From: Anaerolineales bacterium
GTDB lineage: Bacteria > Chloroflexota > Anaerolineae > Anaerolineales > E44-bin32
Assembly (NCBI GenBank): GCA_041554155.1
Contig: JBFFMI010000002.1
Span: 1-60,650 of the forward strand
Length of the DNA: 60,650 nucleotides
Direction of reading: 5' to 3'
Shown: in pieces, positions 1 through 44,953 of the stretch
Numbering within the stretch: the stretch's first letter is position 1
Layout of the letters: every line of letters begins with the position of its first letter
Notes under the pieces: generated by a model
Database searches by the model: none
What the model was told of the DNA's origin: nothing
Seen by the model: only the letters and a program-made list of their open reading frames with translations
Program-made: the position numbers and the translations under genes

Positions 1-1
1 C

Positions 2-586
2 TCCGATGGCGTGATGAAATTGATCCAGGAGGGCGTCATCAATAATGAAAAAAAGACCCTCCATCCCGGTAAAATCGTCGCCGGATTTATCCTCGGCTCT
101 AACACGCTTTATGATTTTGTTGACGATAATCCGATCGTCGAGTTGCACCCAACAGAATACGTGAACGACCCCTTCATCATCTCCCAGAACGATAAGATGG
201 TCTCCATAAATTCAGCAATCGAAGTTGACCTAACGGGACAGGTTTGCGCCGACAGTATCGGACCGAGGCTCTACTCCGGTGTTGGAGGCCAGCTGGATTT
301 CGTCTACGGTGCTTCTCGTAGTAAGGGAGGCAAACCGATCATCGCGCTTCCTTCCACAGCAACACCGGGAGGCGGGGAACCTGTGAGCCGCATTGTGTCT
401 ATGCTCAAACCCGGGGCAGGCGTGGTGACAACTCGCAACCATGTTCACTATGTCGCGACTGAATTCGGCATCGCCCATCTTTATGGCAAGACCATCAAGG
501 AACGCGCTAAGGCATTAATATCCATCGCACATCCTGACTTCAGGGATGAACTGGTATCCCGCGCAAAGGAATTAAATTATTTATGA
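2..586 (+). CDS. acetyl-CoA hydrolase/transferase family CoA-transferase (4-hydroxybutyrate or succinyl-CoA:acetate type), C-terminal part; 5' end off-window
   Basis: Frame is open from the window edge. The tail ([18 protein letters not shown]...[12 protein letters not shown]...[11 protein letters not shown]) matches the conserved C-terminal domain of this family. The stop overlaps the pyk start (ATGA at 583-586). Confidence 0.8.
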
Positions 587-2007
587 TCAGGCGTTCTAAA
601 ATCATAGCTACGGTCGGTCCAGCCAGCGCAGAGCGAAGTATGCTCAAGCAGCTGCTCGAAGCAGGCATGGATGTGGCCAGATTGAACTTCTCCCATGGGG
701 ACCATCAAGGTCAGTTAGCGGTCCTGCAAAACCTGCGTTCTCTGAGCGATGAACTTAATCGTCCCATCGCCATCCTGCAGGATTTACAGGGACCCAAGCT
801 GCGCACCGGCATCCTGCCTGGTGCTGGAAAGGTACAAGTTGAAGAGGGACAAACGGTTGTGCTCACTACCGAAAAAACACCGAAGGACAGCTCGCATATC
901 CCGGTAACCTACAGCCGACTCGCAAAAGAAGTAGGCCCTGGCGATACGATCCTGATCAACGACGGGCGTATCGAGCTGCGGGTCCAGGACTGCGATGGGG
1001 ATCAGGTAAAGGCAGAGGTCATCGTTGGCGGGGAGATTGGTTCACGCAAGGGCATCAATGTCCCCCACGTGGCACTTTCAGCCGCATCCATTACAGAAAA
1101 AGACAGACGCGACTTGGCCTTTGGCCTGGCGCAAGGGGTAGACGCGATCGCGCTTTCCTTCGTACGACATGCGGATGATATCGTTAAGCTTCGAAAGCTG
1201 ATCACTGATACGCCTGATCAGGCTCAGTTTCCACTGCTCATTGCAAAACTGGAAAGACCTGAGTCAATCGATAACCTGGATGCGATCCTACAGGTGTGTG
1301 ATGGCGTGATGGTCGCACGCGGTGACCTCGGGGTCGAGGTTTCCCCGGAGCGAGTTCCCTCCCTGCAGAAGCAAATCATTCAAGAAGCGCTTGCGCGTCA
1401 GCGCTTTGTCATCACCGCAACACAGATGCTGGAATCGATGATCTCAAATCCTAAACCGACGCGCGCCGAGGCTTCCGATGTCGCAAATGCAGTCTTCGAT
1501 GGAAGCGACGTCCTGATGCTCTCCGGGGAAACGGCGGTTGGCCAGTATCCGAAAGCGGCCGTTTCCACTATGCACCGAATCATTGTTGACGCCGAGCAGC
1601 ACGCGTCTGAATGGGGGCAACAGCGTAAAGTTCGAAGCAGCACCGACGATGATGCCGTGGCAACGACGCATGCAGCCAGAGCTCTGGCACATGACCGCCA
1701 GGTAGCTGCGTTGGCAGTCTTCACACGTTCAGGTCGATCTGCCCACCTCCTTTCGAGTGTTCGTCCCAACGTGCCAATCCTGGCTTTCACCCCCGAAGTT
1801 CGGACATACCACCAGCTCTCCCTAGCATGGGGTGTCATACCCTATTTGATCGAAAAGGCACGCTCGGTCGAAGAGATGATCGCGCTTGTCCGGAAGGCTT
1901 GCCTTGAATCCGATTTTGTCTCGAAAGGTCAGCAGGTGGTTATGGTCGCAAGCTTACCGGTCGGCGAAATGGGACCACCAAACTTCACCCTCCTGCAGAA
2001 AGTCTGA
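583..2007 (+). CDS. pyk: pyruvate kinase
   Basis: 474 aa. Contains [29 protein letters not shown] and TQMLESM motifs plus a C-terminal regulatory domain. Confidence 0.93.
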
Positions 2008-2119: not shown

Positions 2120-2920
2120 TCAACGAAGATAGGGCTCAAGAATATCGACCAACTCCTTGGCGACACTCTCGATATTTCCTTCAAGCCGCTGCCGCCGGCG
2201 ATCACGTATGGCGGCCTCTCGCATTCCTGTAACTCTCGTCGGGGATCCTTGAAGTCCTATGCGTCCATCCTCTGTTCCCAGATCTTTGGGTCCCCAGACC
2301 GTTACGGGCACCGTGTCAAATGCCTGTTCTTTAATCTCGTAGTCCATAAAACGGGGTTGATTGGCCGCGCTCTTCACGCTGAGCACTGCTGGCAGCGGGG
2401 TGCGTACGGTGGATCGACCACGTGAATCGCGTATGACTCTGATCCCCTCGATGTCGTCATCTTCAAATTGTGCTTTAACAGCCAAAGTCACTACCGGCCA
2501 AGCCAACCACTCTGCCAAGCCAGGTGGAACCTGTCCTGTCGCGCCATCGCTCGATTCTTCTCCACAAACGACGAGATCCACATCTCCCAGTTGTTGCACG
2601 GCTCTCGCGAGAACGTAGGTTGTAGCCAGGGGATCCGCGCCTGCAAAAGCTCGATCGCTCAGCAAGTAGAGCGCATCTGCCCCCATGGCTAGCCCCACTC
2701 GTAAAAAGGGCTCGAAAAACGCCGGGCCCATGGAGATGATGGAAAGTCTTGCACCGGATTGATCTTTCAACTGCAGGGCTAATTCAATCGCATTCATATC
2801 GGGCGGATTAATCTCGGAGCGAGCTTGTTCACGCTGAATTAGCATGGTTTCTGGATCGACCTGGATTTCTTCTGGCTTGGGTGTGACTTTCATGCAAACG
2901 ACGATGTGGCGATCAGACAT
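2120..2920 (-). CDS. etfB: electron transfer flavoprotein beta subunit (EtfB/FixA-like)
   Basis: The ORF 2120-3010 was trimmed to the internal ATG at 2918-2920 (MSDRHIVVCMKVTPKPEE...), which overlaps the etfA stop by 8 nt. Carries the typical EtfB NPxDxxAxE segment (EINPPDMNAIELAL). Confidence 0.85.
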   Translation of the reverse strand: MSDRHIVVCMKVTPKPEEIQVDPETMLIQREQARSEINPPDMNAIELALQLKDQSGARLSIISMGPAFFEPFLRVGLAMGADALYLLSDRAFAGADPLATTYVLARAVQQLGDVDLVVCGEESSDGATGQVPPGLAEWLAWPVVTLAVKAQFEDDDIEGIRVIRDSRGRSTVRTPLPAVLSVKSAANQPRFMDYEIKEQAFDTVPVTVWGPKDLGTEDGRIGLQGSPTRVTGMREAAIRDRRRQRLEGNIESVAKELVDILEPYLR

Positions 2921-3959
2921 GCGCCTTCTCCCTGCGCTCTTCCAAGGCGAGCATGAACGCCTGGAGGAACGCATTCGCGTCAGCGACAATGCCATAATCG
3001 GCGTATTCAAAGATCTGCGCCGCCGGGTCGCTATTTACCGCAATCACAAGATCTGCTTTTTCAATCCCAACTACAAAGTGAAAAGCACCGCTGATACCCA
3101 GGCAAAGTGCGATTTTCGGATTGCATACGACGCCTGTCTGACCGACCTGACGTTCCCGCTCGATATAGCCATCATCGACCGGAGGGCGTGTCGCGCCCAC
3201 CTCACCACTGAGTACATCCGCCAGCGCCCTCAATGATTCAAAGTCCCCTTCGATCCCTCGGCCCCCACAGATCAGGACTTCAGCCTGGGTTAGATCAATA
3301 GCCACATGATGATCTTGTTCGAGGATCTGCGTCCGAAAAGACTCATCGCTCATTCGGGCCTTCATCGGCACAATCTTGCCTTCACGGCTCAGGTCCGAAG
3401 TCGGGAGTGAGAAAACCCCGGGACGCACGGTGGAGATTTGAGGGCGATGGGAAGGGCATTCAAGCAGAGCCACGATCCCCCCTCCAAAGCCGGTTACCTC
3501 ACTAACCAGCAGCTTAGTTTCAGGATCGAGCAGAAGGTCCGTGCAATCGGCGTTTAACCCGGTCTGAAGGCGAACAGCCAGACGCCCAGCTAAGTCCCGT
3601 CCATCATGTGTCGCCCCGACCAGCAGCATACTCGGTTTCTCAGCGAGAATTGCATGTGTTGCGACTTCAGTGTACGCCTCTACATTAAAGGATGAGAGTC
3701 GCTCATCCTCGATGATCACGGCTTCATCAACACCATAGGTAAAAGCATGTCGTGCAAGTTCCTCGATCGAATGGCCAATCAGCAAGGCCGTCAAACTGGA
3801 CTGCGATTCGTCTGCCAGACTGCGTGCTTTTCCTAGCAATTCAAGTGAGACATTCGCCAGCCCTGCCTCGTTATGCTCGAGATAAACCCAGAGTGACGGA
3901 TTTTCTTCTGCCAGGGTGTATCCAGGTCCTGGCATGGCGTGCTTACTTTTCACTGTCAT
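2913..3959 (-). CDS. etfA: electron transfer flavoprotein alpha subunit (EtfA/FixB-like)
   Basis: 348 aa. The C-terminal FAD domain reads GGRGI...ATRPPVDDGY...QVGQTG..V.P.LY...GISGA.QH-like. No N-terminal ferredoxin domain. The start overlaps the stop of the upstream gene by 4 nt. Confidence 0.88.
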   Translation of the reverse strand: MTVKSKHAMPGPGYTLAEENPSLWVYLEHNEAGLANVSLELLGKARSLADESQSSLTALLIGHSIEELARHAFTYGVDEAVIIEDERLSSFNVEAYTEVATHAILAEKPSMLLVGATHDGRDLAGRLAVRLQTGLNADCTDLLLDPETKLLVSEVTGFGGGIVALLECPSHRPQISTVRPGVFSLPTSDLSREGKIVPMKARMSDESFRTQILEQDHHVAIDLTQAEVLICGGRGIEGDFESLRALADVLSGEVGATRPPVDDGYIERERQVGQTGVVCNPKIALCLGISGAFHFVVGIEKADLVIAVNSDPAAQIFEYADYGIVADANAFLQAFMLALEERREKAHV

Positions 3960-5122
3960 TCATGCTCCAGGTGCGCATACACGACTTCGATAACATCAAG
4001 GACAGGCAAACTTTCACCTTCCACAACCTTCATGCTGTCTTCGAGGCAAGCGATGCATAGTGGACATGCGGTAACAAGCATGCTTGCCCCCGTCCGACGG
4101 GCTTGCTCCACCCGGATATCACCAAACCTCTCGCCGGGTAGTGTTTCTAAGTACATCCTTCCACCACCGCCTCCGCAACATAGCGCATCATCCCTTTCTT
4201 GCTCCATAGGGATGAGTTCAACGCCGGGAATGGCCTGTAAGATCTTGCGCGGTGCGTCGTATTCTCCACTGCCCCGGCCAAGCAAGCACGGGTCGTGGTA
4301 GGTCAGGCAAAGATCATCTCTGGCGGTAAGATTCAACCTCCCGCTGTCGGTCAGGTCGGCTACGAACTGGGTTATGTGTGTCACCTCGATGCTGTCAATC
4401 AACCCATCATACTGGTGCCGGAACACATCAAAGCAGTGTGGAGAAAGCACGATCATTTGCTGTACCCGATTTTGCTTAAATATCGTCTTCGCCAGATTGG
4501 CCATGTCCTCAAAGAAAGGCCTATGCCCCAGGCGCAGCACACTTTCCCCACAGCAAGGTTCATCCAGCCCAAGGATGCCAAATCGAATGCCAGCCGAGCC
4601 GAGAATTTTCACAGCAGCTCTTGCGACGGCTTGAGCCCGACGGTCATAGGATGCCGTGCAGCCGATATATAAAAGCCAATCATGCTGTGCGGCATCGAAT
4701 GCTGGGATGTCCAGGTCAACTGCCCAATCCAGGCGAGCCGAAGGGGGTTGACCCAGGGGGTTATTATTCCAATAGCAAGACCATAGTGTGCTGGGTAGCG
4801 CGTGCAGTTGATCGCGAGCTTTCCAGAGCAAGTAGCGCAAATTGCTGATGACCTCGCTGATGGGAACACCGCGTGGACAGGAAGCTTCACATTGGAGGCA
4901 GCCGCTACAAAGCCATAAAGTATCCAATTCTTGCATGTTTCCTAATTGAGCTGCCCGCAGGATGCCGCGTACATCGAAGCCCCCTTCTCTGGTCTCTCCC
5001 CAGGGGCACATCGCTGTACAAACCCCGCATTGAAAACAGGGGGCCGCTGCCCCATTGGTGAGTGTGTGGATTTCTTGCCACAACACATCATCCAGGAGGA
5101 TGATCTCGCTGTCTTCAATCAT
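3956..5122 (-). CDS. HdrD-like (fused HdrC/HdrB-type) Fe-S oxidoreductase with two CCG domains
   Basis: 388 aa. Two CxxCxxCxxxCP motifs (CFQCGVCTAMCP, CSGCLQCEASCP), followed by cysteine-rich CCG motifs (EPCCG..., HDPC, LCCGGGGG, TACPLC). No obvious transmembrane helices. Confidence 0.8.
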   Translation of the reverse strand: MIEDSEIILLDDVLWQEIHTLTNGAAAPCFQCGVCTAMCPWGETREGGFDVRGILRAAQLGNMQELDTLWLCSGCLQCEASCPRGVPISEVISNLRYLLWKARDQLHALPSTLWSCYWNNNPLGQPPSARLDWAVDLDIPAFDAAQHDWLLYIGCTASYDRRAQAVARAAVKILGSAGIRFGILGLDEPCCGESVLRLGHRPFFEDMANLAKTIFKQNRVQQMIVLSPHCFDVFRHQYDGLIDSIEVTHITQFVADLTDSGRLNLTARDDLCLTYHDPCLLGRGSGEYDAPRKILQAIPGVELIPMEQERDDALCCGGGGGRMYLETLPGERFGDIRVEQARRTGASMLVTACPLCIACLEDSMKVVEGESLPVLDVIEVVYAHLEHE

Positions 5123-5167
5123 AGGTTTTATCCAGAATCTGCATACCGCGTTCTGCCTCTCTCATCA

Positions 5168-8100
5168 TCATTCGATAACTGTGGAAGCTTTTTGCAGATT
5201 GGCGCGCAGAATTTCATCCATCTCACTGATCTTCTCAGCAAACTCCTTGCCTTCTGCTGCAGATATCCAGCGAAGCTGAAGGCGCTCCGGTGCAATTCCT
5301 TTACGCTCGTACTTTCGACTCCAATGCTTAAAACGCTTATCGGTGAGCCGATTGGCATAGTTGTAATGACAATCAGATCCCGTTTCCGTAAGCCGACAAC
5401 CTGTTATGAGTACCGCACCTGCGCTCCTTTCGAATGCGCGCTCGATAAAGGATTCCTCGAAGCGCGCAGAGCACATCGTGCGAATGATCCTGGCAGATGA
5501 TGGGTATTGACGTTTTTCAATCCCTGCAAGGTCGGCACCGGCATACGAGCACCAGTTGCAGGTGAAAACAAGGCACTTTTCAGCCGGTCGGTCTTCAAGC
5601 GCAGCATCCACCTGGGCTAATATTTGATCCTTTGTAAAATAGGGCATGTCGATGGCGGAGAAATTGCATTCCGCTGCGCATGTACCACATCCCATGCAAG
5701 CCGCCTCGTGGATCCGGACCACGCCCTCCTTCACAGGTCCCGTCGGTTCAATTGCGCCAAAGGGGCAAACTTTTACGCAGCGCATGCAACCGATACAAAG
5801 CTCTTCATCAACAATAGCTGTAAGAGGCTCCTTGGAGATCACCCCATGCGCCAGGAGTGCGCCGGCCTTACCGGCGGATGCCAATGCTTGCGCGATCGAC
5901 TCGCGCACATCCTTGGCTCCCTGGGCTGCACCTGCCAGGTAAATTCCCTGGCTTGCAGTCTCAGCAGGGCCCAGTTTTGGATGCAGCTCCATATAAAAAC
6001 CATCTTCGCTGCGCGATAGCTTGAGCTGCTCATCAAGGTTGTCGGTCGTTGGTTCTAGACCCACAACGAGGACGAGAAGATCTGTCGGGATCTGAATTCT
6101 TGCTCGCGAGAGTTCGTCCAATACCTCAAGACTCCCATCCTGATACTTGAGCACGGATTGGGGCGTTTGTTCAGAGTCGTAGCGGAAGAATTGCACCCCG
6201 GCCCGCGCCGCTTCTTCAAACAGTTCTTCAGCCTGCCGGCTATAGGTACGGATGTCCTTCGATACGACCCGGACAGATTTTCCAGTCTGACGGAGCCGTA
6301 GCGCCTGGTCGATCATGGATGTGCAACAATAGCGCGAACAACCCATGGTTCCCGCTCGTGAACCCACGCAAGAGATGAAGGTAATATGATCTGCATCCAG
6401 TTTGCGGGAAGTTAGCAAAGTTTCCAATTCAAGGTTCGTAATAACGGTCGGATCATCGCCATAACCAAATTCGTCTGGCTGATAGGTTTTAGATCCGGTT
6501 GCGACTACCAGCGCGCCTGCTTCGATATCCGCGCCATCGCTAAGCCTTGCCTTGAAACTCCCGACTATCCCACCGATCGTTTCCACCTCGGTTCCGAGGT
6601 GAAGTTTAACTTTCGCCTGTTTGAGTTCACGCTTTTTTGCTCGTAGCAAATCTTTGGCTTTGATCCCGGATGGCGACAGGACATCTAATTGCCGCAACAT
6701 ACCACCCAGTTCAGAATCTCGCTCTACTAGATCAGTCTTGAAGCCCTGGCGGGATAGTGCAACTGCTGCATTCATGCCCGCCACGCCACCACCGATGACC
6801 AGCACGCTTTGGTTAAGTGGAAGTTCACGGATTTCTAGTGGCTCAAGCCTGCGTGCTTTTTCGACCGCCATCGCCACCATATCCTTGGCTTTCGCAGTGG
6901 CTTCCTCTTTCTCGTGTTTATGAACCCAGGAATCCATATTCCGGATATTGGCCATCTCAAGCAGGAAAGGGTTTAGCCCAGCACGTTGCATTACGCCTCG
7001 AAATATGGACTCATGCGTCTTGGGAGAACAGGCTGCGATCACCACCCGGTTGATGCGATGTTCCCGAATCGAATCTTCAATTTCCTTCTGCGTATTCCCT
7101 GCGCAGGAGAACATCTGATCGGACACGTACATTACATCGGGTAGGGTCCTGGCATAGGTGACGAGTTCTTGAATATCGATAACCCCAGCGATATTCGAAC
7201 CACAATGACAGACAAAGACGCCAACGCGAGCAGTATCGATGTCTTCCATAGGTTCGACTTCAGGCGGCGCCTGCCATTGCCTTTCATCGACAAAGGCCAT
7301 TGCCAGGGCTGCCGCACCACTGCCTTCTGCTACACTGTCCGGTATGTCCTTTGGTCCACTCGCACATCCGGCAGCGAATATGCCCGGTCGAGTCGTTGAA
7401 ATTAACCCGGATATTTCTTCATGCGCCAACAGGAAACCATCTTGATCCAGCGCAATACCAAGCTTTTCCGCAAGCGTCTGTAACCCTTCCTGGGGCAATA
7501 CGGCATTGGCCAGTACAACCATGTCGTACGCATCTGTACGCCTTATGCCGACCTTTGTATCTTCATAGGAGACAGCCAGGGAACCATTCCCATTCGGAGT
7601 TATGCGCGCGGGACGCCCTCGAATATAGGTGGCGCCCTCTGCCTGTGTGCGCTCCTTGAAGCCGTCGAACCCCTTCCCATATGCGCGCAAATCCATATAC
7701 ATGATATGCACATCCTCAACACCATGATCTAGCGCTTGATAGGCGTGTTTGAGAGAGTACATACAGCAGAAGCGGGAGCAGTAGCGCGCGTAGCGCCGGT
7801 CACGGGAACCTACGCAAAGGACAAATAAGAGTTTGTGAGGATGCTCGCCATCGGATGGACGCAGGATCTCACCACCGGTCGGTCCAGCTGAATTGACCAA
7901 TCGCTCAAATTCGAGCGCAGTGAGAATATCTGGATGCTGGCCGTAACCCCACGTTGTTAAGTGGCGCGGATCGAAGCTGTCGTAGCCGACAGCAACGATC
8001 ACCGCGCCAACCCTTCGCGCCAGGATTTGCTCTTCAGGCTGCATAAAATCGATGGCGCCAGGAGGGCAAACATCGACGCAGCGATTACAGGGAATGTAAT

Positions 8101-8569
8101 TCGGGGGTTGGTTTAAACATTGCTCGATATCAATCAGGTATTCACCCGGTACGCTCTGCGGGATAGGAGTATAAATAGCCTTGCGAGCCGCCATCCCTGA
8201 ATCAAATTCATTGGGCACAACAATAGAGCAAACCGGTGTACAATCACCGCAGCGCGTACAAGCGTCAGTGACATACCGACCTCTTTGACGAATGGTTGCG
8301 GTGAAGTCACCGACATCCCCCTCTAATTTATCCAACTCTGCAAGAGAGATCACTTCGATGTTGGGGTGTAGATCGACTTCCGACATCTTGGGTGCCTCAA
8401 TGCAGATGGAACAATCCAGTGTGGGGAAGTTTTTATCGAGTACAGCCATGATCCCACCGATGGTTGGCTGTTTCTCAACGAGAACGACCTGTGCACCTGC
8501 ATGTGCAAGGTCAAGCGAAGCCTGGATGCCTGCTATGCCTCCACCCAAAACCAGTACTGAATCACTCAT
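5168..8569 (-). CDS. tandem HdrA-like flavoprotein fused to an MvhD/FlpD domain (heterodisulfide reductase subunit A-like)
   Basis: 1133 aa. Module 1: GGGIAGIQASLDLA, LDKNFPTLDCSIC, inserted Cys clusters, CVGSRDRRYARYCSRFCC. Module 2 (from about 6815): IGGGVAGMNAA, CVGSRAGTMGCSRYCC, 2x CxxCxxCxxxCP. The C-terminal FTCNWCSYAGADLAG...ITGC (about 5168-5580) is an MvhD-type domain. Confidence 0.85.
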   Translation of the reverse strand: MSDSVLVLGGGIAGIQASLDLAHAGAQVVLVEKQPTIGGIMAVLDKNFPTLDCSICIEAPKMSEVDLHPNIEVISLAELDKLEGDVGDFTATIRQRGRYVTDACTRCGDCTPVCSIVVPNEFDSGMAARKAIYTPIPQSVPGEYLIDIEQCLNQPPNYIPCNRCVDVCPPGAIDFMQPEEQILARRVGAVIVAVGYDSFDPRHLTTWGYGQHPDILTALEFERLVNSAGPTGGEILRPSDGEHPHKLLFVLCVGSRDRRYARYCSRFCCMYSLKHAYQALDHGVEDVHIMYMDLRAYGKGFDGFKERTQAEGATYIRGRPARITPNGNGSLAVSYEDTKVGIRRTDAYDMVVLANAVLPQEGLQTLAEKLGIALDQDGFLLAHEEISGLISTTRPGIFAAGCASGPKDIPDSVAEGSGAAALAMAFVDERQWQAPPEVEPMEDIDTARVGVFVCHCGSNIAGVIDIQELVTYARTLPDVMYVSDQMFSCAGNTQKEIEDSIREHRINRVVIAACSPKTHESIFRGVMQRAGLNPFLLEMANIRNMDSWVHKHEKEEATAKAKDMVAMAVEKARRLEPLEIRELPLNQSVLVIGGGVAGMNAAVALSRQGFKTDLVERDSELGGMLRQLDVLSPSGIKAKDLLRAKKRELKQAKVKLHLGTEVETIGGIVGSFKARLSDGADIEAGALVVATGSKTYQPDEFGYGDDPTVITNLELETLLTSRKLDADHITFISCVGSRAGTMGCSRYCCTSMIDQALRLRQTGKSVRVVSKDIRTYSRQAEELFEEAARAGVQFFRYDSEQTPQSVLKYQDGSLEVLDELSRARIQIPTDLLVLVVGLEPTTDNLDEQLKLSRSEDGFYMELHPKLGPAETASQGIYLAGAAQGAKDVRESIAQALASAGKAGALLAHGVISKEPLTAIVDEELCIGCMRCVKVCPFGAIEPTGPVKEGVVRIHEAACMGCGTCAAECNFSAIDMPYFTKDQILAQVDAALEDRPAEKCLVFTCNWCSYAGADLAGIEKRQYPSSARIIRTMCSARFEESFIERAFERSAGAVLITGCRLTETGSDCHYNYANRLTDKRFKHWSRKYERKGIAPERLQLRWISAAEGKEFAEKISEMDEILRANLQKASTVIE

Positions 8570-9102
8570 GAAGCTTGCTCCAGCTGGACTTGCTGATAAC
8601 CAAGTTCTAATGCCTCCAGATTCAGCTTAAGCACCGATTCTTTCACGGTTGTACGGATAGCCTGTTCAAGCGCCTCACGCTGCACGACCTTTGTGGAACC
8701 GCACAAAAAACCGAGCATAACCACGTTCGCCACGATCCTGCGACCGAGACCTTCGGCAAGATCGGTTGCTCGAATCGCGAGTGCGCGATCACCTTGCCGT
8801 GGCGATACCAATCCGCTATCGATCAAAACCGTAGCTTGTTCGACAGTCTGCACCCGGTAGCGATGGTATGCCTCTTGCGAGAGTGCCACGAAAATGTCTG
8901 CCTTCTGGACAAACGGGTAGGCGATACTGCGATCTGCCACGACGATATTGGAAGAGGAAGCGCCGCCTCTAGCCTCGGGACCGTAGGACTGGGTCATCAC
9001 AGCTTCCAAACCCTGGTAAAGGGCAAAGGCTTTTCCAAGCAGATACCCGGCGAGCACCACACCCTGCCCGCCAAATCCGGAGATGCGAATTTCATGTCGC
9101 AT
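8566..9102 (-). CDS. 2-oxoacid:ferredoxin oxidoreductase gamma subunit (set 1)
   Basis: 178 aa. Carries the [14 protein letters not shown] motif typical of Por/Kor gamma. The stop overlaps the HdrA-like start by 4 nt. Confidence 0.85.
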   Translation of the reverse strand: MRHEIRISGFGGQGVVLAGYLLGKAFALYQGLEAVMTQSYGPEARGGASSSNIVVADRSIAYPFVQKADIFVALSQEAYHRYRVQTVEQATVLIDSGLVSPRQGDRALAIRATDLAEGLGRRIVANVVMLGFLCGSTKVVQREALEQAIRTTVKESVLKLNLEALELGYQQVQLEQAS

Positions 9103-9928
9103 TCCCCAGCTCCAGTCTTACGGGTGCATAGGGTGGGGCTTCGCGATCCACGAACCGACCCACGAAGATGGGTTGATCACCATGCAGATCAATTCCGAGT
9201 TGATCCAGTGAGACTCCCTCGGCGATCTCACAGCGATCACGATAGAGCTGTAACTCGTCGATCGCGTCGGCCAATTGATTGGATCGTCCAAAACCAATGG
9301 GGCAAGGGACAAGCGCTTCGATGAAAGAAAATCCTGGTTTTTGAAAAGCATACAGGATGTCCTGGCGGATCTCGCGCACATGAATGGATGTCCAACGCGA
9401 TACAAAATTCGCACCAGCAGCCCAGAGCAAGTTAACGAGATTGAACGGCAATTCAGGACAACCATAGGGGGTGGTGGAAGTCCTCGCCCCTGGCGGAGTC
9501 GTCGGGCCGGATTGGCCACCCGTCATGCCGTAATTAAAATTGTTCGTACATATAACCGTCAGATCCACATTCCGACGTGCAGCGTGGATCAAGTGATTGC
9601 CGCCAATCGCGGCCAGATCGCCGTCCCCGCTGAAGACTGTGACGTGTAGATCGGGATTTGCTAACTTCAGACCAATGGCGAAAGGAATCGCACGCCCATG
9701 GGTCGTGTGATAGGAATCAATATTCATATAGCCGGCCACCCGGCCAGAGCACCCGATCCCGGAAACCACCACATGCCGATCCGCTGAATCGCCGAACATT
9801 TGGATCGCATGGGCGTAGCAGCGCATGACAACTCCGATGCCACAGCCCGGGCACCAAATATGTGGCATTCGATCAGCACGGATGAGAGTATCCAGCGGAT
9901 GAGTCTCTACCTGGATCGGAGCGACCAT
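9092..9928 (-). CDS. 2-oxoacid:ferredoxin oxidoreductase beta subunit (TPP-binding, set 1)
   Basis: 278 aa. WCPGCG near the N-terminus and a GDGD...NN..YGMTGGQ TPP motif. Confidence 0.88.
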   Translation of the reverse strand: MVAPIQVETHPLDTLIRADRMPHIWCPGCGIGVVMRCYAHAIQMFGDSADRHVVVSGIGCSGRVAGYMNIDSYHTTHGRAIPFAIGLKLANPDLHVTVFSGDGDLAAIGGNHLIHAARRNVDLTVICTNNFNYGMTGGQSGPTTPPGARTSTTPYGCPELPFNLVNLLWAAGANFVSRWTSIHVREIRQDILYAFQKPGFSFIEALVPCPIGFGRSNQLADAIDELQLYRDRCEIAEGVSLDQLGIDLHGDQPIFVGRFVDREAPPYAPVRLELGNAT

Positions 9929-9929
9929 A

Positions 9930-11078
9930 CTAGCTGACCTCTCGGATCGCAGCGAAAATTGGATCGGGCGACATCATTTCTCCACCCGCGTGGTTTACAC
10001 CAACAATTGGTTTCATAACATACCGCTGCACTTCTGTAATTAACTGACCTAAGTTCATCTCCGGGATGACGTAGGCTTTTGCCGTTTGATCAATCGTTTT
10101 CAACAGTGTGGCTGGAAACGGCCATATGGAGATTAACCGCAGAAATCCCACAGGGATCCCTTGCTCGCGAGCTTCTCGCACCGCCCTTAATGCAGATCTC
10201 GCTGTGCTTCCGAATGCAATCACCACAATCTCCGCATCATCCATGAAATGCGTTTCGGTGCGAATGATTTGCTCTGCATTGTCCTGAACTTTTTTCACCA
10301 GACGGGTTACCAGTTGATGATGTGTCTCGGGAGACATGTCTGGATAGCCCTGCTCGTCATGTGTCAATCCGGTGAAATGGAGTTTGTACCCCTCGCCAGC
10401 ATAGGCCATCGGCGGGACCAAATCATCCTGGTCAGCCTGAAAGGGTTGAAAAGCTTCTTTGGAAGAGCCATTCGGTCGCTTCCGCCCCCAACGGGTTATC
10501 CCCGAGGCATCAGGGATCACGACTCGCTCAACCATATGGCCCACGACTTCATCCGCCATTATAAGCACCGGGATACGAAATCGATCGGCGACATTAAAGG
10601 CATGCACAGTCAAGTTAAAAAGCTCCTGGGGCGACCATGGGGAGTAGGCTGCGATGCCATAATCCCCGTGAGAACCCCAACGCGCCTGCATAATGTCGGA
10701 TTGGCCTGGCAAAGTCGGCAGGCCTGTACTTGGGGAGCCTCGTTGCACATTCACGATGACACAGGGCAGCTCCATCATGACACCCAGACCCAGGTTTTCC
10801 ATCATCAAACTGAATCCAGGACCGGACGTGGCCGTCATCACCCTCGCTCCAGCAGCAGATGCTCCTAAGATGGAGGCCATACTGGCCATCTCATCCTCCA
10901 TCTGTATGAAAACACCACCGACTTCCGGCAAACGCAAGGCTAATCGCTCGGCGATCTCAGTTGAGGGTGTTATTGGATAGCCGCCGAAGAAGGTGCAGCC
11001 TGCCGCCAGGGCGCCTTCCGCGCAGGCGTGATCACCATGCATGAAATGATCCCCGGAAAGTACAGCCGGTCGACTCAT
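9930..11078 (-). CDS. 2-oxoacid:ferredoxin oxidoreductase alpha subunit (set 1)
   Basis: 382 aa. GYPITPSTEI and TSGPGFSLMMENLG motifs. Confidence 0.88.
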   Translation of the reverse strand: MSRPAVLSGDHFMHGDHACAEGALAAGCTFFGGYPITPSTEIAERLALRLPEVGGVFIQMEDEMASMASILGASAAGARVMTATSGPGFSLMMENLGLGVMMELPCVIVNVQRGSPSTGLPTLPGQSDIMQARWGSHGDYGIAAYSPWSPQELFNLTVHAFNVADRFRIPVLIMADEVVGHMVERVVIPDASGITRWGRKRPNGSSKEAFQPFQADQDDLVPPMAYAGEGYKLHFTGLTHDEQGYPDMSPETHHQLVTRLVKKVQDNAEQIIRTETHFMDDAEIVVIAFGSTARSALRAVREAREQGIPVGFLRLISIWPFPATLLKTIDQTAKAYVIPEMNLGQLITEVQRYVMKPIVGVNHAGGEMMSPDPIFAAIREVS

Positions 11079-11344
11079 CCCTGGCCCTCCAACGTATATA
11101 TCGCAAACTCAGGACAGATCATCGTGCAGAATTCGCAATGCACGCATGCGGTTTCCATACCAGGAATGATTTCTGGGAGGTGGTACCCCTTTTCATTTGT
11201 GATCTCGGAAGACCGCAGCACACCGCGAGGGCAGAGCTCGACGCATAGCTTACATCCTTTGCATCGAGCGGGAATAAGGTAAACCTGCCCAAAAGGAACA
11301 GGCAGATCGTCGAGGTTGATCGGTTTACGGGCGAAGACCTTCAT
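11075..11344 (-). CDS. 2-oxoacid:ferredoxin oxidoreductase delta subunit (2x[4Fe-4S] ferredoxin, set 1)
   Basis: 89 aa. CKGCKLCVELCP and CVHCEFCTMICP motifs. 4-nt overlap with the alpha subunit. Confidence 0.85.
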   Translation of the reverse strand: MKVFARKPINLDDLPVPFGQVYLIPARCKGCKLCVELCPRGVLRSSEITNEKGYHLPEIIPGMETACVHCEFCTMICPEFAIYTLEGQG

Positions 11345-11626
11345 TGTCGCCTGTCACAAACAAAAGTCTAGCCTTGAACAGGGTTCGCCAATCCAAGCAG
11401 GTACGCTCAAAGCTGACCTTGATCGGATCAGCCAAAGCGTAGGGGCACCCTCCGCTCGCCACAAGTACTAACTGTCATCTCGCGCTTGGTAAATCTTCGT
11501 TTTATTGCGATTATTATGATTAATCGGGTAATACAGGGGCGGGCACGCCATGGAGCGGGTATCGCTTGTGCACTTGCTAGCTTCTAGGGCGTTGCCGAAT
11601 CGCTGAGAAATGCGGACGAACATCCA

Positions 11627-11655
11627 TTGAGCCATTTTGCCTACCACCCTATAAT
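11627..11655 (+). promoter_or_regulatory. candidate sigma70-type promoter for the ccs-like operon
   Basis: TTGAGC (11627-11632), 17-nt spacer, TATAAT (11650-11655). This would give a 5' UTR of about 170 nt. Confidence 0.35.
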
Positions 11656-11834
11656 CGGGTAAGTGCCGGAGCGCAGCATGCCATGAATCGAACATTCAAT
11701 GAAGGTGCTCTCAACTGCTGCCCATTTCTCATAATCCATCCCCCCCCTACGCCCTGTATACCTGCACGGCTGAAAAAAGTATGCAATATAAACACACTGT
11801 CGAACCCTCTAGATCCACGCGCTAAAGGAATTTG

Positions 11835-13379
11835 ATGGCCAAATTGCACGAATACCAGGGCAAGCAACTTCTCGAGGCTGGCAAGATACCCATCCCACCC
11901 GGCGGTCCAGCAACATCACCCCAAGAAGCTGCTGATCTGGCGCGTGAGTGTAATGGCCCTGTGGTTGTAAAGGGTCAGATCTGGCTAACCAGTCGGGCGA
12001 GCCTGGGTTTGATCCGATTCGCTGAAACGCCCGAGCAGGCTGCGGAGGCCGCAGAATCAATGCTGGGACGCAGCATTAAGGGCTTCGCGGTGGATACCGT
12101 GCTTGTCGAAGCCCGGCTTGATATTGAACGAGAATTTTATGCGGGGATCATCATCGATGATCAAATCCAGTCGCCAGTGCTGATCTTCAGCGCCATCGGA
12201 GGGAGCGGGATCGAGGAACTCGCTGAAAAGCACCCCGAGTCCATCGTCCGTACCCCCATTGATGTCGTGCGCGGTTTCTACGATTATCAGGCTCGAGAGC
12301 TCGTCCGTCAGACCGGCATTCAAGGCAAATTGCTACTTAAAATCGGGGGGCTTCTGCCACGCTTGGTCGATGTCGCTCGAGAATATGATGCTCGCGCAGC
12401 TGAGATCAATCCCCTGGTTCTCACTGTCGATGGCAAACTAATCGCTGCAGATTGCCGCATCACGATTGATGATTACGCCACCTATCGACATCCTGAATTG
12501 GGAATCGAGGTCGCCCGAGAATTTGATCGACCGCCGACGGATCTTGAAAAAATTGCCTGGCAGGTCGAAAAAAATGATTACCGGGGAACCTTCTATTTCA
12601 TCCAGATGCGCGAGCAGTTTAAACATGGAGACAAGGTGATTGGATTCCATGGTGCGGGTGGTGGTGGATCGATGATGAGCATGGATGCCATCCTGAACCG
12701 TGGGTACTCGCTCGCAAATTTCGTCGATACGAGCGGAAATCCACCGGCTTCAAAAGTCTATCGAGCTGCAAGGATCATCATGGCACAAGGTCCGATCGAT
12801 GGCTACTTCGCTTCTGGCTCGGGGGTTGCTTCCCAGGAACAGTTTCATTCTGCCAGGGGACTGGTTAAAGCCTTTATGGAAGCACCCCTGATGGTACCCG
12901 CTGTAATCCGCTTGGGGGGCAACGCCGAGGAGCAGGCGATTGACATCCTCAAGAGAGCCGAGGACGTCATACCTGCACCAGTTCAAGCCTTTGGAAAGGA
13001 TGACAATCCAGCATACTGCGCCGAACGCTTGGATCTCTTGATCCAATCCTACGCTAAGCCCACATCAGCCGCCGAACCTAAGATCCCGCCACCTCCAGCT
13101 GCTGCTTATTCGTTCGAAACAGTGACTGGTGGGTGCGTCTCGTTCGATCACACCCTCTGCCTTGATTGTGAGAGCAACATCTGTGTGGAGCGTTGCGTTC
13201 CCCAAATCATAAAACTCGAGAATGATGTACCCGTTCTCAATATCACACATGACGAAGCCATGAAAGGCGGTTGCACGGAATGCCTCGCCTGCCAGATAGA
13301 TTGCTATTTTGAAGGCAACCAGGGTGGCTTTGTCGATCTTCCGATACCCGGTTTAGATGGCTATGCGCAAGGCATTTAG
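11835..13379 (+). CDS. SucC-like ATP-grasp CoA ligase beta-type subunit with C-terminal di-cluster-like Cys domain; candidate citryl-CoA synthetase large subunit
   Basis: KLHEYQGKQLL N-terminus, EINPL, GAGGGGSMMSMDAI and ANFVDTSG segments as in SucC. ATG at 11835 follows AAAGGA (the track started at the TTG at 11832). The last ~80 aa carry CLDCESNICVERC and CTECLACQIDC. Confidence 0.7.
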   Translation: MAKLHEYQGKQLLEAGKIPIPPGGPATSPQEAADLARECNGPVVVKGQIWLTSRASLGLIRFAETPEQAAEAAESMLGRSIKGFAVDTVLVEARLDIEREFYAGIIIDDQIQSPVLIFSAIGGSGIEELAEKHPESIVRTPIDVVRGFYDYQARELVRQTGIQGKLLLKIGGLLPRLVDVAREYDARAAEINPLVLTVDGKLIAADCRITIDDYATYRHPELGIEVAREFDRPPTDLEKIAWQVEKNDYRGTFYFIQMREQFKHGDKVIGFHGAGGGGSMMSMDAILNRGYSLANFVDTSGNPPASKVYRAARIIMAQGPIDGYFASGSGVASQEQFHSARGLVKAFMEAPLMVPAVIRLGGNAEEQAIDILKRAEDVIPAPVQAFGKDDNPAYCAERLDLLIQSYAKPTSAAEPKIPPPPAAAYSFETVTGGCVSFDHTLCLDCESNICVERCVPQIIKLENDVPVLNITHDEAMKGGCTECLACQIDCYFEGNQGGFVDLPIPGLDGYAQGI

Positions 13380-13394
13380 GAGACCCGTTTTACG

Positions 13395-14306
13395 ATGTCA
13401 ATTTTGATCGATGAGACCAAGCGCGTACTGATACAGGGTATCACCGGTCGGGAGGGTCAAGCACGCGCCCGCCTGATGCAGGGCTATGGCACCCAAATCG
13501 TCGCCGGTGTTACGCCCGGAAAAGGCGGTCTCGAAGTACTTGGCGTTCCTGTATTCGATAGTGTTCGTGAGGCCCGGGATAACTGTGGTCCTCTAGATAT
13601 CAGCGTGCTGTTCATCCCCGCGCCACTGGTAAAAAGCGCAGCTCTGGAAGCAATCGAGGCCGGGATCCAATTGCTCGTATTAATCCCCGATCGAGTTCCT
13701 ATCTATGATGTGCTCGTCATTGCCCAGGCCGCCAAAACCTATGGCGCCCGGTTTATCGGACCAAATACTCTCGGAGTCTTGTCCCCTGAGAAAGCCGTCC
13801 TCGGGATGATCGGCGGCCGTGCTGCATCGGCGCGGTCCTGGTTCATCCCTGGTCCTGTGGGCATAAGCTCTCGCTCCGGTGGCATCACCTCCGCCATGGC
13901 TTATTATCTAGCTCAGAAGGGGATTGGCGCTACGACTCTCGTGCACGTCGGCGGTGATGTCGTGGTGGGCCTGCCCCACCCGGAAGTTGCGCTGCTCTTC
14001 GAGCACGATCCCGAGACAAAAGCCATGGTCTTGTTCGGTGAGATCGGCGGTTCACAGGAAGAACGCCTGGCAGACCTGGTAGAGGCAGGCGAGGTGACCA
14101 AACCCATTGTGGCGTTCATTGGAGGTAAAGCGGCCAAAAGCGGGACACGTTTCAGCCATGCAGGGGCGATCGTGGAAGGTGGCCGCGGGACGCATGAAGG
14201 CAAGGTGACTCGTTTGCGCCAGGTCGGCGTAACCGTCGTGGAAGAATTTGGCGACCTGCCATCCGCCACCCAAAACGTCTTGAAGGAGCATGGGATCCCA
14301 ACATGA
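13395..14306 (+). CDS. SucD-like CoA ligase alpha-type subunit; candidate citryl-CoA synthetase small subunit
   Basis: 303 aa. Contains IQGITGREG, SRSGG, GEIGGSQEE and SHAGAIV (the phosphohistidine loop). Confidence 0.75.
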   Translation: MSILIDETKRVLIQGITGREGQARARLMQGYGTQIVAGVTPGKGGLEVLGVPVFDSVREARDNCGPLDISVLFIPAPLVKSAALEAIEAGIQLLVLIPDRVPIYDVLVIAQAAKTYGARFIGPNTLGVLSPEKAVLGMIGGRAASARSWFIPGPVGISSRSGGITSAMAYYLAQKGIGATTLVHVGGDVVVGLPHPEVALLFEHDPETKAMVLFGEIGGSQEERLADLVEAGEVTKPIVAFIGGKAAKSGTRFSHAGAIVEGGRGTHEGKVTRLRQVGVTVVEEFGDLPSATQNVLKEHGIPT

Positions 14307-15091: not shown

Positions 15092-15100
15092 GAGATCCAT

Positions 15101-15649
15101 ATGACAAAAACACTTGAAGGGCTCATCCCCGAAATCGAGCTCATCAGCGAAAATACGTTGCGTGAACAGGTCGTTGCAGTCTGGGAAGACGCCCTTCACC
15201 AGGCTGGATGGGAATTAGAAGATCTGGCTTCCATGCCCTACACCCTCCTTGTTGAAAATGTGACCATCAGTTTCCCCGAGCACGTGAGTGTTGTCGCACG
15301 CCTTTGTCTGGCGATCGAATCGGTCCTACGCGAGTCCTACGCAGATCGCTATGAGATCAACCGGGACACGCTGCTAGCGGGGGCTCTCCTCGCAGATGTG
15401 GGTAAGTTGCTTGAATTTAAGAAATCCGGGGATGGGTATGCTTGGGCTAGCATGTATCGATATTTACGGCACCCTTTTACTGGGGTTGGGCTATGCTTCA
15501 AGCACGGCCTCCCCGAGGCGGTCATGCATATTGTCGCCACGCATTCCTGGGAAGGCGAGAAATTCACCCGGCTGCCCGAATCAATCATCTTCCATCACGC
15601 TGACTTTATTGATTTTGACCTGACCAAGTTTGAAGCGAAACAAGGTTAA
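15101..15649 (+). CDS. HD-domain-like protein (degenerate HD dyad)
   Basis: 182 aa. EH...LLADVGK...H...H...D spacing resembles the HD superfamily, but the HD dyad reads AD. Confidence 0.5.
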
Positions 15650-15657
15650 GATCAGCT

Positions 15658-18713: not shown

Positions 18714-18738
18714 CACCAGCTTTAGGAGGATGCGATCG

Positions 18739-23461: not shown

Positions 23462-23462
23462 C

Positions 23463-44921: not shown

Positions 44922-44953
44922 ACACTTCTCCCCATCTCGCTCGCATACGAACT

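Follow-up and report, generated by a model that had tools for sequence, protein, structure and literature searches.

Why is a 2-oxoacid:ferredoxin oxidoreductase (OFOR) encoded in one run with proteins of two flavin-bifurcation types, and do the products work as one system? The question is raised by a 60,650-nucleotide stretch of an Anaerolineales genome (assembly GCA_041554155.1, contig JBFFMI010000002.1), referred to below as the window. At positions 2120-11344, on its minus strand, eight genes encode a four-subunit OFOR (KorDABG), an HdrA-MvhD fusion protein, an HdrD-like iron-sulfur (Fe-S) protein, and the two subunits of an electron-transferring flavoprotein (ETF; EtfA and EtfB). Flavin-based electron bifurcation is the route by which strict anaerobes reach potentials beyond that of NADH. 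To our knowledge, no enzyme combining two different bifurcation modules was known before the 2026 structure of class II benzoyl-CoA reductase. A first-pass annotation of the window had suggested that the operon couples 2-oxoacid conversion to electron bifurcation or confurcation. Here, we tentatively propose, at slightly less than even probability, that the eight genes encode one soluble coupled system in which the OFOR, an Hdr-type flavin centre and an NADH-linked EtfAB would be joined, with a lean toward the oxidative direction.

The eight-gene operon and its distribution

The eight open reading frames (ORFs) are consecutive and co-directional, in the order korD, korA, korB, korG, hdrA-mvhD, hdrD-like, etfA and etfB. 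Their features, and those of the adjoining intergenic region, are as follows (aa, amino acids).

korD, 11075-11344, minus strand: OFOR delta subunit, 89 aa, ferredoxin-like electron conduit with two [4Fe-4S] clusters (2x[4Fe-4S]); Fer4_7/Fer4 in Pfam
korA, 9930-11078, minus strand: OFOR alpha subunit, 382 aa; POR_N and PFOR_II domains
korB, 9092-9928, minus strand: OFOR beta subunit, 278 aa, binding thiamine pyrophosphate (TPP); TPP_enzyme_C domain
korG, 8566-9102, minus strand: OFOR gamma subunit, 178 aa; POR domain
hdrA-mvhD, 5168-8569, minus strand: 1133 aa; three HdrA-like stretches and an FlpD/MvhD domain at residues 1000-1122 (Pfam)
HdrA module I (residues 1-430), 7280-8569, minus strand: putative bifurcating flavin site and low-potential exit
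HdrA module II (residues 440-997), 5579-7252, minus strand: N-terminal [4Fe-4S] domain, second thioredoxin reductase (TrxR)-like flavin adenine dinucleotide (FAD) domain, and C-terminal 2x[4Fe-4S] ferredoxin domain
MvhD-like domain (residues 998-1133), fused to HdrA, 5168-5578, minus strand: predicted [2Fe-2S] adaptor of the mid-potential arm; FlpD in Pfam (9e-37)
hdrD-like, 3956-5122, minus strand: HdrD-like soluble Fe-S protein, 388 aa; Fer4_8 and two CCG domains (Pfam); putative wire from HdrA to the alpha-FAD of Etf
etfA, 2913-3959, minus strand: large Etf subunit, 348 aa, with the alpha-FAD; ETF and ETF_alpha domains
etfB, 2120-2920, minus strand: small Etf subunit, 266 aa from the ATG at 2920; ETF domain; putative beta-FAD/NADH site
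Intergenic region upstream of korD, 11345-11831, no strand assigned: 487 bp, divergent, common to the ccsA cluster; presumed promoter region

The gene number, strand, coordinates and every junction were re-read from the sequence and agree with the first-pass annotation. korD and korA share an ATGA overlap (11075-11078), korA and korB are 1 nt apart, and korB overlaps korG by 11 nt (9092-9102). The korG stop and the hdrA start again overlap as ATGA (8566-8569). A 45-nt gap (5123-5167) separates hdrA from hdrD, which shares an ATGA overlap with etfA (3956-3959); etfA and etfB overlap by ATGTCTGA (2913-2920). The open frame of etfB extends to 3010, but homology favours the ATG at 2920, the start that had been assumed. 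GGAG-like ribosome-binding sequences stand ahead of most starts in the operon. A hydrophobic stretch of membrane-helix grade was found in none of the eight proteins.

The earlier statement that the cluster contains no terminator-like hairpin did not hold, as a consensus scan found ten; this number equals the expectation from shuffled sequence (10.0 ± 3.0). The divergent intergenic region contains one consensus promoter-like site (11627-11655), oriented to the plus strand. Terminator-like and promoter-like matches carry no weight either way, because they are as frequent as shuffled sequence would lead one to expect.

The distribution of the operon was surveyed by scanning one genome per prokaryotic species, with the window proteins searched by tblastn, and 51 loci were obtained (individual loci are given by L numbers). 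The survey is biased to relatives with at least about 60% HdrA identity, and it speaks for conservation within the clade, not for absence elsewhere. Only loci with 3.3 kb or more of sequence on the side concerned entered the synteny counts. korDABG is directly upstream of hdrA on the same strand in 36 of 37 loci, and hdrD-etfA-etfB is directly downstream on the same strand in 40 of 41. The first-pass annotation had named missing adjacency in related genomes as evidence against its proposal; the adjacency is clearly conserved. The same eight-gene order occurs in about 40 species-level genomes, nearly all of uncultured Anaerolineae, and independent gene calls with precomputed Pfam matches on further contigs give the same eight genes. 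The korG stop runs past the hdrA start (-4 or -8 nt) in 29 of 43 loci, and the 8-nt etfA/etfB overlap is found in 24 of 32; in 43 of 48, hdrA and hdrD either overlap or are separated by no more than 60 nt. Every one of the seven junctions is an overlap in L052. Clustering of all flanking ORFs of at least 90 aa in the 51 loci revealed no further conserved gene near hdrA beyond the eight. The eight genes behave as one evolutionary unit, and their arrangement is far beyond chance.

The hosts of the 51 loci are mostly metagenome-assembled genomes (MAGs) labelled Anaerolineales, Anaerolineaceae, Anaerolineae, Thermoflexia or Chloroflexota. Single MAGs labelled Zixibacteria, Elusimicrobia and Gammaproteobacteria are also among them, the bin labels being taken as given. 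HdrA has hundreds of close relatives, of which the named ones are from uncultured Anaerolineales bacteria. Among the best 120 homologues of HdrA, and likewise of the HdrD-like protein, every one belongs to an uncultured MAG or a metagenome; hence, no physiology can be borrowed from cultured carriers.

When 1.8 billion proteins are clustered at 50%, a single representative stands for the whole clade. More than 100 clusters of collinear tandem HdrA of about 1000 aa are found at 34-46% identity to the window protein. Those that could be placed on contigs have FrhB-like and glutamate-synthase domains as partners, or lie in multi-Hdr clusters; they are never accompanied by an OFOR and an Etf. Distant tandem HdrA proteins (39-44% identity) were set aside as a guide to function, since their partners are different and they are uninformative here. 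On one metagenome contig (L057, 8001-14857), a 1162-aa tandem HdrA-MvhD (43% identity) is followed by FrhB-like, glutamate-synthase GXGXG and flavin mononucleotide-domain genes. This may be an Hdr-coupled glutamate synthase, possibly another tie of this HdrA type to 2-oxoglutarate metabolism.

Four loci were reclassified, among them L043 and L045, the two exceptions in the synteny counts. L045 is not the same system but an unrelated archaeal cluster: on this Bathyarchaeota contig (3126-11130), a 1000-aa tandem HdrA (42% identity) is accompanied by two separate MvhD genes, an HdrB-like CCG protein and an MvhG/MvhA NiFe hydrogenase. The tandem HdrA design thus serves hydrogenase-linked systems too. 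L043 had appeared to lack kor; a 100-N scaffold gap (9899-9999) removes its kor genes and the N-terminus of HdrA. L048 and L051, from MFD-labelled MAGs, had appeared to deviate and are the same operon fragmented by frameshifts.

Other features of the operon and its upstream region were also noted. A GC-rich hairpin at 5040-5053 (minus strand; GGGGC-AGCG-GCCCC, followed by a weak T-run) lies about 70 nt into hdrD and is one of the ten terminator-like matches. The divergent intergenic region contains two pairs of direct repeats, TAATCGGGTAA at 11521-11531 and 11652-11662, and CGAACATYCAWTGA at 11617-11630 and 11689-11702. As a regulatory clue these repeats were discarded; they are absent from the corresponding regions of related loci and are probably chance or strain-specific. 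No Rfam matches and no tRNAs were found.

The protein modules

The 1133-aa protein is composed of two HdrA units and an MvhD domain, module II being 29% identical to module I over 244 residues. The earlier division of the operon into OFOR, HdrA-MvhD, HdrD-like and Etf modules stands; its "giant HdrA" is really this tandem. The protein scores 1170 bits against NF040770 (cutoff, 1100). Module I aligns to residues of about 150-518 of methanogen HdrA (8rvu/5odc) and is without the N- and C-terminal domains of HdrA. It has a TrxR-like FAD domain with GGGIAG, a Cys53-x2-Cys56 pair, an inserted ferredoxin domain (2x[4Fe-4S], residues about 97-180) in which four-cysteine motifs occur twice, and Cys402. 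A cluster motif, C252...C264-x3-C268-C269, is followed by Lys274 (CCMYSLK), the lysine by which bifurcating HdrA flavins are recognised. Module II has an N-terminal cluster domain (Cys454/456/489/514), a second FAD fold with GGGVAG, and the C-terminal 2x[4Fe-4S] domain, and is without the CxxC pair, the inserted ferredoxin domain and the lysine. Hence, all HdrA hallmark elements (CCMYxxK, the inserted and the C-terminal 2x[4Fe-4S] domains, and the N-terminal cluster domain) are present but divided between the two halves.

In 40 HdrA orthologues (60-83% identity), all Fe-S cysteines and Lys274 are invariant. In the same set, the lysine-equivalent residue of module II, 754, is variable and is followed by an invariant Gln755, and Cys1004/1007/1033/1058/1067 of the MvhD domain are invariant. 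The MvhD chains of 9sw2/5odc match the MvhD domain at 2e-30 to 8e-27. An AlphaFold2 model built from 27 sequences is compact (predicted template modelling score, pTM, 0.77; mean predicted local distance difference test, pLDDT, 75) and weak only in the cluster-binding loops. Its best Foldseek matches are the HdrA chains of 5odc, 8rvu and 7bkb (template modelling score 0.70-0.71 on the target, 32-35% identity). With every Fe-S ligand and the bifurcation lysine kept in module I, the earlier framing of this protein in terms of flavin bifurcation is reasonable.

The HdrD-like protein has two cubane motifs, a degenerate first CCG domain (CCG1: C155, C190, C191, S227, C230), a complete second one (CCG2: C279, C315, C316, C353, C356), and His229, so that the CCG1 pattern reads C-CC-S-H-C. 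CCG2 and His229 are invariant in 42 orthologues. Residue 227, the first Cys of the CxxC motif of CCG1, is Ser in 36 of the 42 and Asp in six, and most CCG1 cysteines are lost in about ten. By hydropathy the protein is soluble, with a maximum 19-residue Kyte-Doolittle value of 1.45. Its best PDB match is Mycobacterium smegmatis EtfD (9ojn, 7e-48), which aligns over its soluble part only (residues 393-738). EtfD passes electrons from ETF to the respiratory chain and has one degenerate CCG (linear 3Fe-4S) and one non-cubane 4Fe-4S cluster with five Cys and a His (PMC13083937). In BamD of class II benzoyl-CoA reductase, a Cys-to-Ser change is likewise found, with a four-Cys distal cluster and a five-Cys-plus-His proximal cluster, the distal one being disrupted in most homologues; cryo-tomography and assays show that BamD passes the high-potential electron to the alpha-FAD of ETF (bioRxiv 10.64898/2026.04.10.717634). 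By analogy with BamD and EtfD, the HdrD-like protein is a putative Fe-S wire that docks ETF.

A role as a thiol or disulfide reductase was considered for the HdrD-like protein and rejected. The catalytic heterodisulfide site of HdrB/HdrD needs two complete non-cubane clusters, and only CCG2 is complete here, CCG1 being always a ligand short and lost in about a quarter of the orthologues. Lacking a complete HdrB-type site, the system is not a canonical heterodisulfide reductase; lacking a membrane anchor, it does not belong to the membrane EtfD family.

EtfA matches bifurcating Etfs (5ol2, 6fah, 7koe, 4kpu and 7qh2) at 4e-71 to 2e-55, compared with 1e-23 to 4e-31 for full-length non-bifurcating ones. 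For EtfB, the values are 6e-43 to 1e-39 (7koe, 7qh2, 6fah, 4kpu and 5ol2) and 7e-18 to 2e-13, respectively. The Geobacter carrier ETF 5ow0 is far more distant from both subunits than the bifurcating Etfs are. The EtfB segment GEESSDGATGQVP is essentially invariant in 39 orthologues. The counterparts of GxQxxDGDTxQVGP and DRxFxGADxxAT, which mark the second-FAD/NADH site, are GEESSDGATGQVPP and SDRAFAGADPLATT; the FAD-type segment is largely kept, and the Asp-to-Ala and Gly-to-Pro changes in these motifs are fixed in the 39 orthologues. From these comparisons the Etf is likely of the bifurcating, NADH-linked kind. On the Etf side too, therefore, the bifurcation framing of the first-pass annotation agrees with the closest structurally characterised relatives.

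The domain set of a four-subunit OFOR is complete, with Pfam matches for all four subunits. KorA scores 549 bits against NF006412 ("2-oxoacid:acceptor oxidoreductase subunit alpha"; cutoff, 411), and its best PDB matches are 1yd7 (1e-112), the alpha subunit of 2-oxoglutarate synthase 8ys5 (1e-77), and 6n2n. KorB best matches 8ys5_C (9e-60), and its best NCBIfam model is that of the 2-oxoglutarate ferredoxin oxidoreductase beta subunit, under cutoff. KorD has two CxxCxxCxxxC motifs (Cys28/31/34/38 and Cys67/70/73/77), with OGOR_delta as its best NCBIfam model, also under cutoff. The nearest OFOR structures are a Pyrococcus 2-keto acid enzyme, the 2-oxoglutarate synthase 8ys5 and a Magnetococcus 2-oxoglutarate enzyme; enzymes of the pyruvate and 2-ketoisovalerate types score far lower. 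By sequence relationship, the enzyme is an OFOR of the Kor/Oor lineage, and 2-oxoglutarate is its most likely substrate.

Two further OFORs lie in the window, which marks the Hdr-linked enzyme as a specialised copy. The second, at 22412-25295 (minus strand), is of the two-subunit type, with a 610-aa gamma-alpha fusion passing TIGR03710 and a 349-aa beta subunit, and lies directly downstream of a GntR/FCD-family regulator gene (25309-26031, minus strand). The third, at 49886-52424 (minus strand), is of the Vor type; its alpha subunit passes NF005507 (VorB), and the beta and gamma genes are adjacent.

Proposed electron wiring and alternative readings

From the observed gene content, motifs, conservation and solubility, and by analogy with Hdr, Fdh-Hdr-Fmd and the Bam complex, we infer the following electron wiring. 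Electrons would branch at the FAD of module I (Lys274). The low-potential arm (about -520 mV) would run through the inserted 2x[4Fe-4S] domain to KorD and on to the TPP site of the OFOR. The high-potential arm would lead from the CCMY-motif cluster through the HdrD-like Fe-S wire to the alpha-FAD domain of Etf, whose beta-FAD would exchange electrons with NAD(H). The mid-potential arm would pass through the C-terminal ferredoxin domain and the fused MvhD to a partner encoded outside the operon, for which free ferredoxin is a guess. Module II would serve as a structural pseudo-partner, in the place that a second protomer takes in the usual HdrA homodimer. On energetic grounds, the OFOR could be placed either on the low arm or as a donor through MvhD; the low arm is preferred because KorD is the ferredoxin-facing conduit of the OFOR and the inserted domain is the ferredoxin-facing site of HdrA. 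Since each of the two flavin modules would treat the other as its high-potential side, one would bifurcate and the other confurcate, which recalls the sequence of confurcation and bifurcation reported for the Bam complex.

In the oxidative direction, electrons from 2-oxoglutarate (about -520 mV) would lift those of NADH (-320 mV) to the level of ferredoxin (Fd). The formal sum would be 2 NADH + 2-oxoglutarate + CoA + 6 Fd(ox) -> 2 NAD+ + succinyl-CoA + CO2 + 6 Fd(red). Its mean donor potential would be about -390 mV, and such a reaction would suit fermenters disposing of NADH. This direction is preferred for the mostly heterotrophic Anaerolineae; the direction, the stoichiometry and the mid-potential partner are speculative. 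By analogy, the eight proteins would most likely form a physical supercomplex. We regard as unlikely the stronger version, that of a self-contained supercomplex with Etf- and HdrA-type sites in series, an OFOR wired to HdrA without free ferredoxin, and a 2-oxoglutarate/succinyl-CoA + CO2 couple directly exchangeable with NAD(H). If true, it would be an anaerobic, energy-conserving counterpart of 2-oxoglutarate dehydrogenase and, run backwards, would be NADH-linked CO2 fixation into 2-oxoglutarate.

Several points weigh against the proposed coupled system. The whole case rests on sequence and analogy. The comparison with class II benzoyl-CoA reductase uses residue numbers and motifs quoted in a preprint (bioRxiv 10.64898/2026.04.10.717634), not a sequence alignment, and the near-identical residue numbers relative to BamE are suggestive. 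EtfB has DGAT where characterised bifurcating Etfs have DGDT, so that NADH-dependent bifurcation by this Etf is not assured. The 2-oxoglutarate-specific NCBIfam models come next in rank, but all score under their cutoffs (alpha, 369/579; beta, 239/364; delta, 55/125), and another 2-oxoacid substrate is therefore possible. Neither the operon nor its surroundings encode an electron donor or acceptor for the MvhD arm, no extra gene is conserved across the 51 loci, and no hydrogenase (MvhA or MvhG homologue) lies within 10 kb; hence, the scheme needs a partner from elsewhere. The formal stoichiometry is only an example that the energetics would allow. Separate enzymes on a common ferredoxin pool could also account for tight operon linkage.

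The first alternative concerns direction. The system could be a bifurcation-boosted 2-oxoglutarate synthase, in which a low-potential electron passing through KorD would drive the carboxylation of succinyl-CoA and the high-potential electron would go to Etf, as part of a reductive tricarboxylic acid (rTCA) branch or of CO2 fixation. A mid-potential donor would enter via MvhD, with reduced ferredoxin, F420H2, or NADH through a partner encoded elsewhere as candidates. In every structurally known HdrA complex, the module at the inserted domain (free ferredoxin, Fmd/Fwd or BamBC) is the low-potential acceptor, which suits this direction. The gene neighbourhood does so as well. Divergent from the operon, a plus-strand cluster (11832-20109) encodes CcsA-like (515 aa) and CcsB-like subunits of citryl-CoA synthetase (CCS), a citryl-CoA lyase (CCL) passing its NCBIfam cutoffs (246.5/245 and 243/212), a 182-aa ORF, a two-subunit enzyme of the aconitase/homoaconitase family, an enzyme of the isocitrate dehydrogenase (IDH)/homoisocitrate dehydrogenase family, and a PrpD/MmgE-family protein. 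The cluster could be citrate-cleaving (rTCA-type), an ATP-yielding citrate-forming branch, or active on a citrate homologue. CCS/CCL, aconitase- and IDH-family genes are divergently adjacent to the operon in the window and nine further loci (L001, L002, L004, L005, L007 and L053-L056) and lie downstream in L015. A malate dehydrogenase and the two additional OFORs are encoded in the same 60 kb.

The neighbourhood is not general, however. The rTCA-like genes noted in the first-pass annotation are indeed present in the window, but as general support they fall short, accompanying a minority of the operons (L001, L002, L004, L005, L007 and L015, that is, 6 of 51 species loci, plus L053-L056); most loci are without them. 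L052 has a normal citrate synthase, glutamate dehydrogenase and malic enzyme as neighbours. ATP-citrate-lyase-type enzymes can also run oxidatively, as in Desulfobacter postgatei, and for this reason CCS/CCL neighbours do not fix the direction. Across genomes the neighbours point to the 2-oxoglutarate node of central metabolism without fixing its direction. Against the synthase stand also the lack of a conserved donor module in the flanks, the cost of several reduced ferredoxins per 2-oxoglutarate were ferredoxin the donor, and the carriers themselves, mostly uncultured digester, sediment and soil lineages usually read as heterotrophs. We consider the reductive direction rather improbable. The general framing of the first-pass annotation, that the OFOR may be coupled to bifurcation, is reasonable in view of the conserved unit and Lys274; its specific scheme, in which ferredoxin reduced by NADH via Etf drives carboxylation, is not supported, and it also gives HdrA no role. 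Its CO2-fixing reading is possible but not favoured.

The second alternative questions the supercomplex itself. An ordinary four-subunit Kor may be co-expressed with a separate HdrA-HdrD-EtfAB enzyme that re-oxidises or supplies its ferredoxin; such an enzyme could be a confurcating oxidoreductase linked to ferredoxin and NAD(H). At 89 aa, KorD is an ordinary delta subunit and carries no additional domain for docking, free ferredoxin is the usual partner of four-subunit OFORs, the best 120 HdrA homologues include no Kor-Hdr fusion, and some loci have gaps of hundreds of bases within the kor part or before hdrA. The adjacency is nevertheless near-absolute, and in most genomes a start-stop overlap falls exactly at korG/hdrA. 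The distant tandem HdrA proteins described above carry other partners, which argues that the OFOR-Etf pairing is clade-specific and not a general convenience of a ferredoxin pool. A pair of independent enzymes is thus doubtful, and the soluble coupled system remains our preferred reading.

A third alternative is less probable still. Here, Etf would be a plain carrier of electrons from acyl-CoA (or other flavin) dehydrogenases encoded elsewhere, which would be confurcated with the low-potential electrons of a 2-oxoacid, possibly not 2-oxoglutarate, so that a fermenter could oxidise acyl-CoA or amino acids. In class II benzoyl-CoA reductase, the docking partner of BamD is a carrier ETF of the non-bifurcating kind, with links to acyl-CoA dehydrogenases and menaquinone (bioRxiv 10.64898/2026.04.10.717634), and the DGAT motif of EtfB could be taken in the same sense. 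The sub-cutoff scores of the 2-oxoglutarate models, and the homoaconitase/homoisocitrate family type of the neighbouring aconitase and IDH genes, would suit another 2-oxoacid. No acyl-CoA dehydrogenase is conserved in the flanks of the 51 loci, however, and the closeness of both Etf subunits to bifurcating Etfs and of KorA and KorB to 2-oxoglutarate enzymes speaks for the NADH-linked reading.

Finally, a reading of the HdrD-like protein as a disulfide-reducing HdrD, which would make the system a classical Hdr bifurcating NADH or 2-oxoacid electrons to ferredoxin and a (hetero)disulfide, draws on the two CCG and two cubane motifs shared with HdrD and on TfrB-like as the best NCBIfam match, but is very improbable, since CCG1 is incomplete in every orthologue while CCG2 and the His are invariant, the pattern of the non-catalytic, ETF-docking BamD and EtfD.

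Neighbouring genes

Several neighbours of the operon were recorded. The 182-aa ORF of the divergent cluster (15101-15649, plus strand) has no Pfam or NCBIfam match and is found in the same position, with 65-68% identity, in L001, L002, L005, L007 and L015. The ccsA product of L056 has a weak Citrate_bind match. Just downstream of etfB, and convergent with it, 1-2007 (plus strand) encodes a CoA-transferase of the AcetylCoA_hydro family, which is truncated at the window edge, together with a pyruvate kinase. The pyruvate kinase is also downstream of the operon in L001, L002, L004, L005, L007, L008 and L053-L056, and the CoA-transferase in L053-L056. A putative role of the latter as a succinyl-CoA:acetate CoA-transferase would fit the product of the OFOR. 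At 44310-47396 (minus strand), NuoB-like, fused NuoCD-like and NuoI-like (2x[4Fe-4S]) genes lie side by side, and their annotated neighbours include no genes for NuoEFG or membrane subunits; this row may be a partial complex-I-like or hydrogenase-derived module. Three minus-strand ORFs, at 20224-21405, 34930-36117 and 39538-40206 (393, 395 and 222 aa), have no match in the family libraries searched.

Comparison with known systems

Full-text literature searches yielded no description of an OFOR-Hdr-Etf operon, in line with the first-pass annotation, which knew of no characterised assembly of this kind. The nearest mention is a hydrogenase-Hdr-Etf association in a Chloroflexi survey. The operon predicts a second combination of two different bifurcation modules, HdrA-type and Etf-type, and places it on an enzyme of central metabolism instead of an exotic aromatic reductase. 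The operon is widespread in Anaerolineae, a group of which anaerobic digesters, sediments, aquifers and soils contain large numbers; if the proposal is true, the modelling of their NADH/ferredoxin balance and 2-oxoglutarate node would be altered. Compact, entirely soluble and made of eight subunits, the system would also lend itself to biochemical work on serial bifurcation and confurcation.

Each module can be compared with known relatives. In subunit order (delta-alpha-beta-gamma) and domain set, the OFOR resembles KorDABG-type enzymes, ForDABGE of Hydrogenobacter thermophilus, 8ys5 and 1yd7, but here its genes are translationally coupled to Hdr and Etf genes. EtfA and EtfB are closest to those of the bifurcating Bcd-EtfAB (5ol2), CarCDE (6fah), Ldh-EtfAB (7qh2) and EtfABCX (7koe) systems, with which they share the FAD-type EtfB segment and an alpha-FAD domain expected to shuttle to a partner redox protein. 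They differ in that the partner would be an HdrD-like Fe-S protein, not an acyl-CoA or lactate dehydrogenase or EtfCX, in the gene order etfA-etfB, and in DGAT. With M. smegmatis EtfD (9ojn), the HdrD-like protein shares two cubane clusters, one degenerate CCG, one non-cubane cluster with five Cys and a His, and ETF as a partner; unlike EtfD, it is without the membrane anchor (five transmembrane helices and haem b), and its electrons would be exchanged with HdrA, not passed to menaquinone.

Among HdrA systems, methanogen HdrABC with Mvh or Fdh, and with or without Fmd/Fwd (5odc, 7bkb and 8rvu), shares the HdrA fold, the MvhD domain and a three-armed flavin centre. In Fdh-Hdr-Fmd (7bkb), the inserted ferredoxin domain of HdrA has a direct connection to a ferredoxin-dependent CO2-converting enzyme. 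The system described here is bacterial and Etf-linked, has one polypeptide in place of the HdrA homodimer, and is without an HdrBC heterodisulfide site, a hydrogenase or a formate dehydrogenase. Methanosarcina HdrA2 is likewise an HdrA-MvhD fusion. In the fused HdrA of anaerobic methanotrophic (ANME) archaea, the N-terminal domain and the TrxR Cys ligand are lost in a complementary manner between the halves, suggesting a built-in heterodimer (PMC9012536). The window protein shows the same complementary loss, but the order of the halves is opposite, and the ANME partners are FrhB-like proteins, HdrBC or hydrogenase, whereas an OFOR and an Etf are found here.

By analogy, the closest known system is the BamDEF + ETF part of the class II benzoyl-CoA reductase of Geobacter metallireducens, Bam[(BC)2DEFGHI]2. 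In the 2026 cryo-electron microscopy study, BamE is a fused HdrA dimer whose bifurcating FAD, in the first TrxR domain, is contacted by Lys280, whereas the second FAD, contacted by Gln768, was judged structural; Cys59-Cys62 belongs to the low-potential path, the low-potential catalytic module receives its electrons from the inserted ferredoxin domain, incoming electrons are relayed by the MvhD-like BamF, and sequential confurcation and bifurcation were reported (bioRxiv 10.64898/2026.04.10.717634). By position and motif, residues 274, 755 and 53-56 of the window protein correspond to 280, 768 and 59-62 of BamE. An MvhD-type adaptor, a soluble HdrD-like protein with a Cys-to-Ser change in a CCG domain, a low-potential catalytic module that, in the wiring proposed here, would likewise be served by the inserted domain, the presence of ETF genes in the cluster, and two kinds of flavin-bifurcation module in one system are further likenesses. 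The systems differ in the catalytic partner, which is a TPP/Fe-S OFOR here and the tungsten enzyme BamBC in Bam, in the second bifurcation module, which is of the Etf type and not of the HydBC type, and in the MvhD domain, which is fused to HdrA and without selenocysteine; the Etf is of the bifurcating-like type. The HydBC-like input module BamGHI is absent here, and neither BamBC- nor BamGHI-type genes occur in the window cluster or in the flanks of the 51 loci. With the HdrD-like protein, the solution in which a degenerate CCG protein docks ETF, as in BamD and EtfD, would recur in a third setting.

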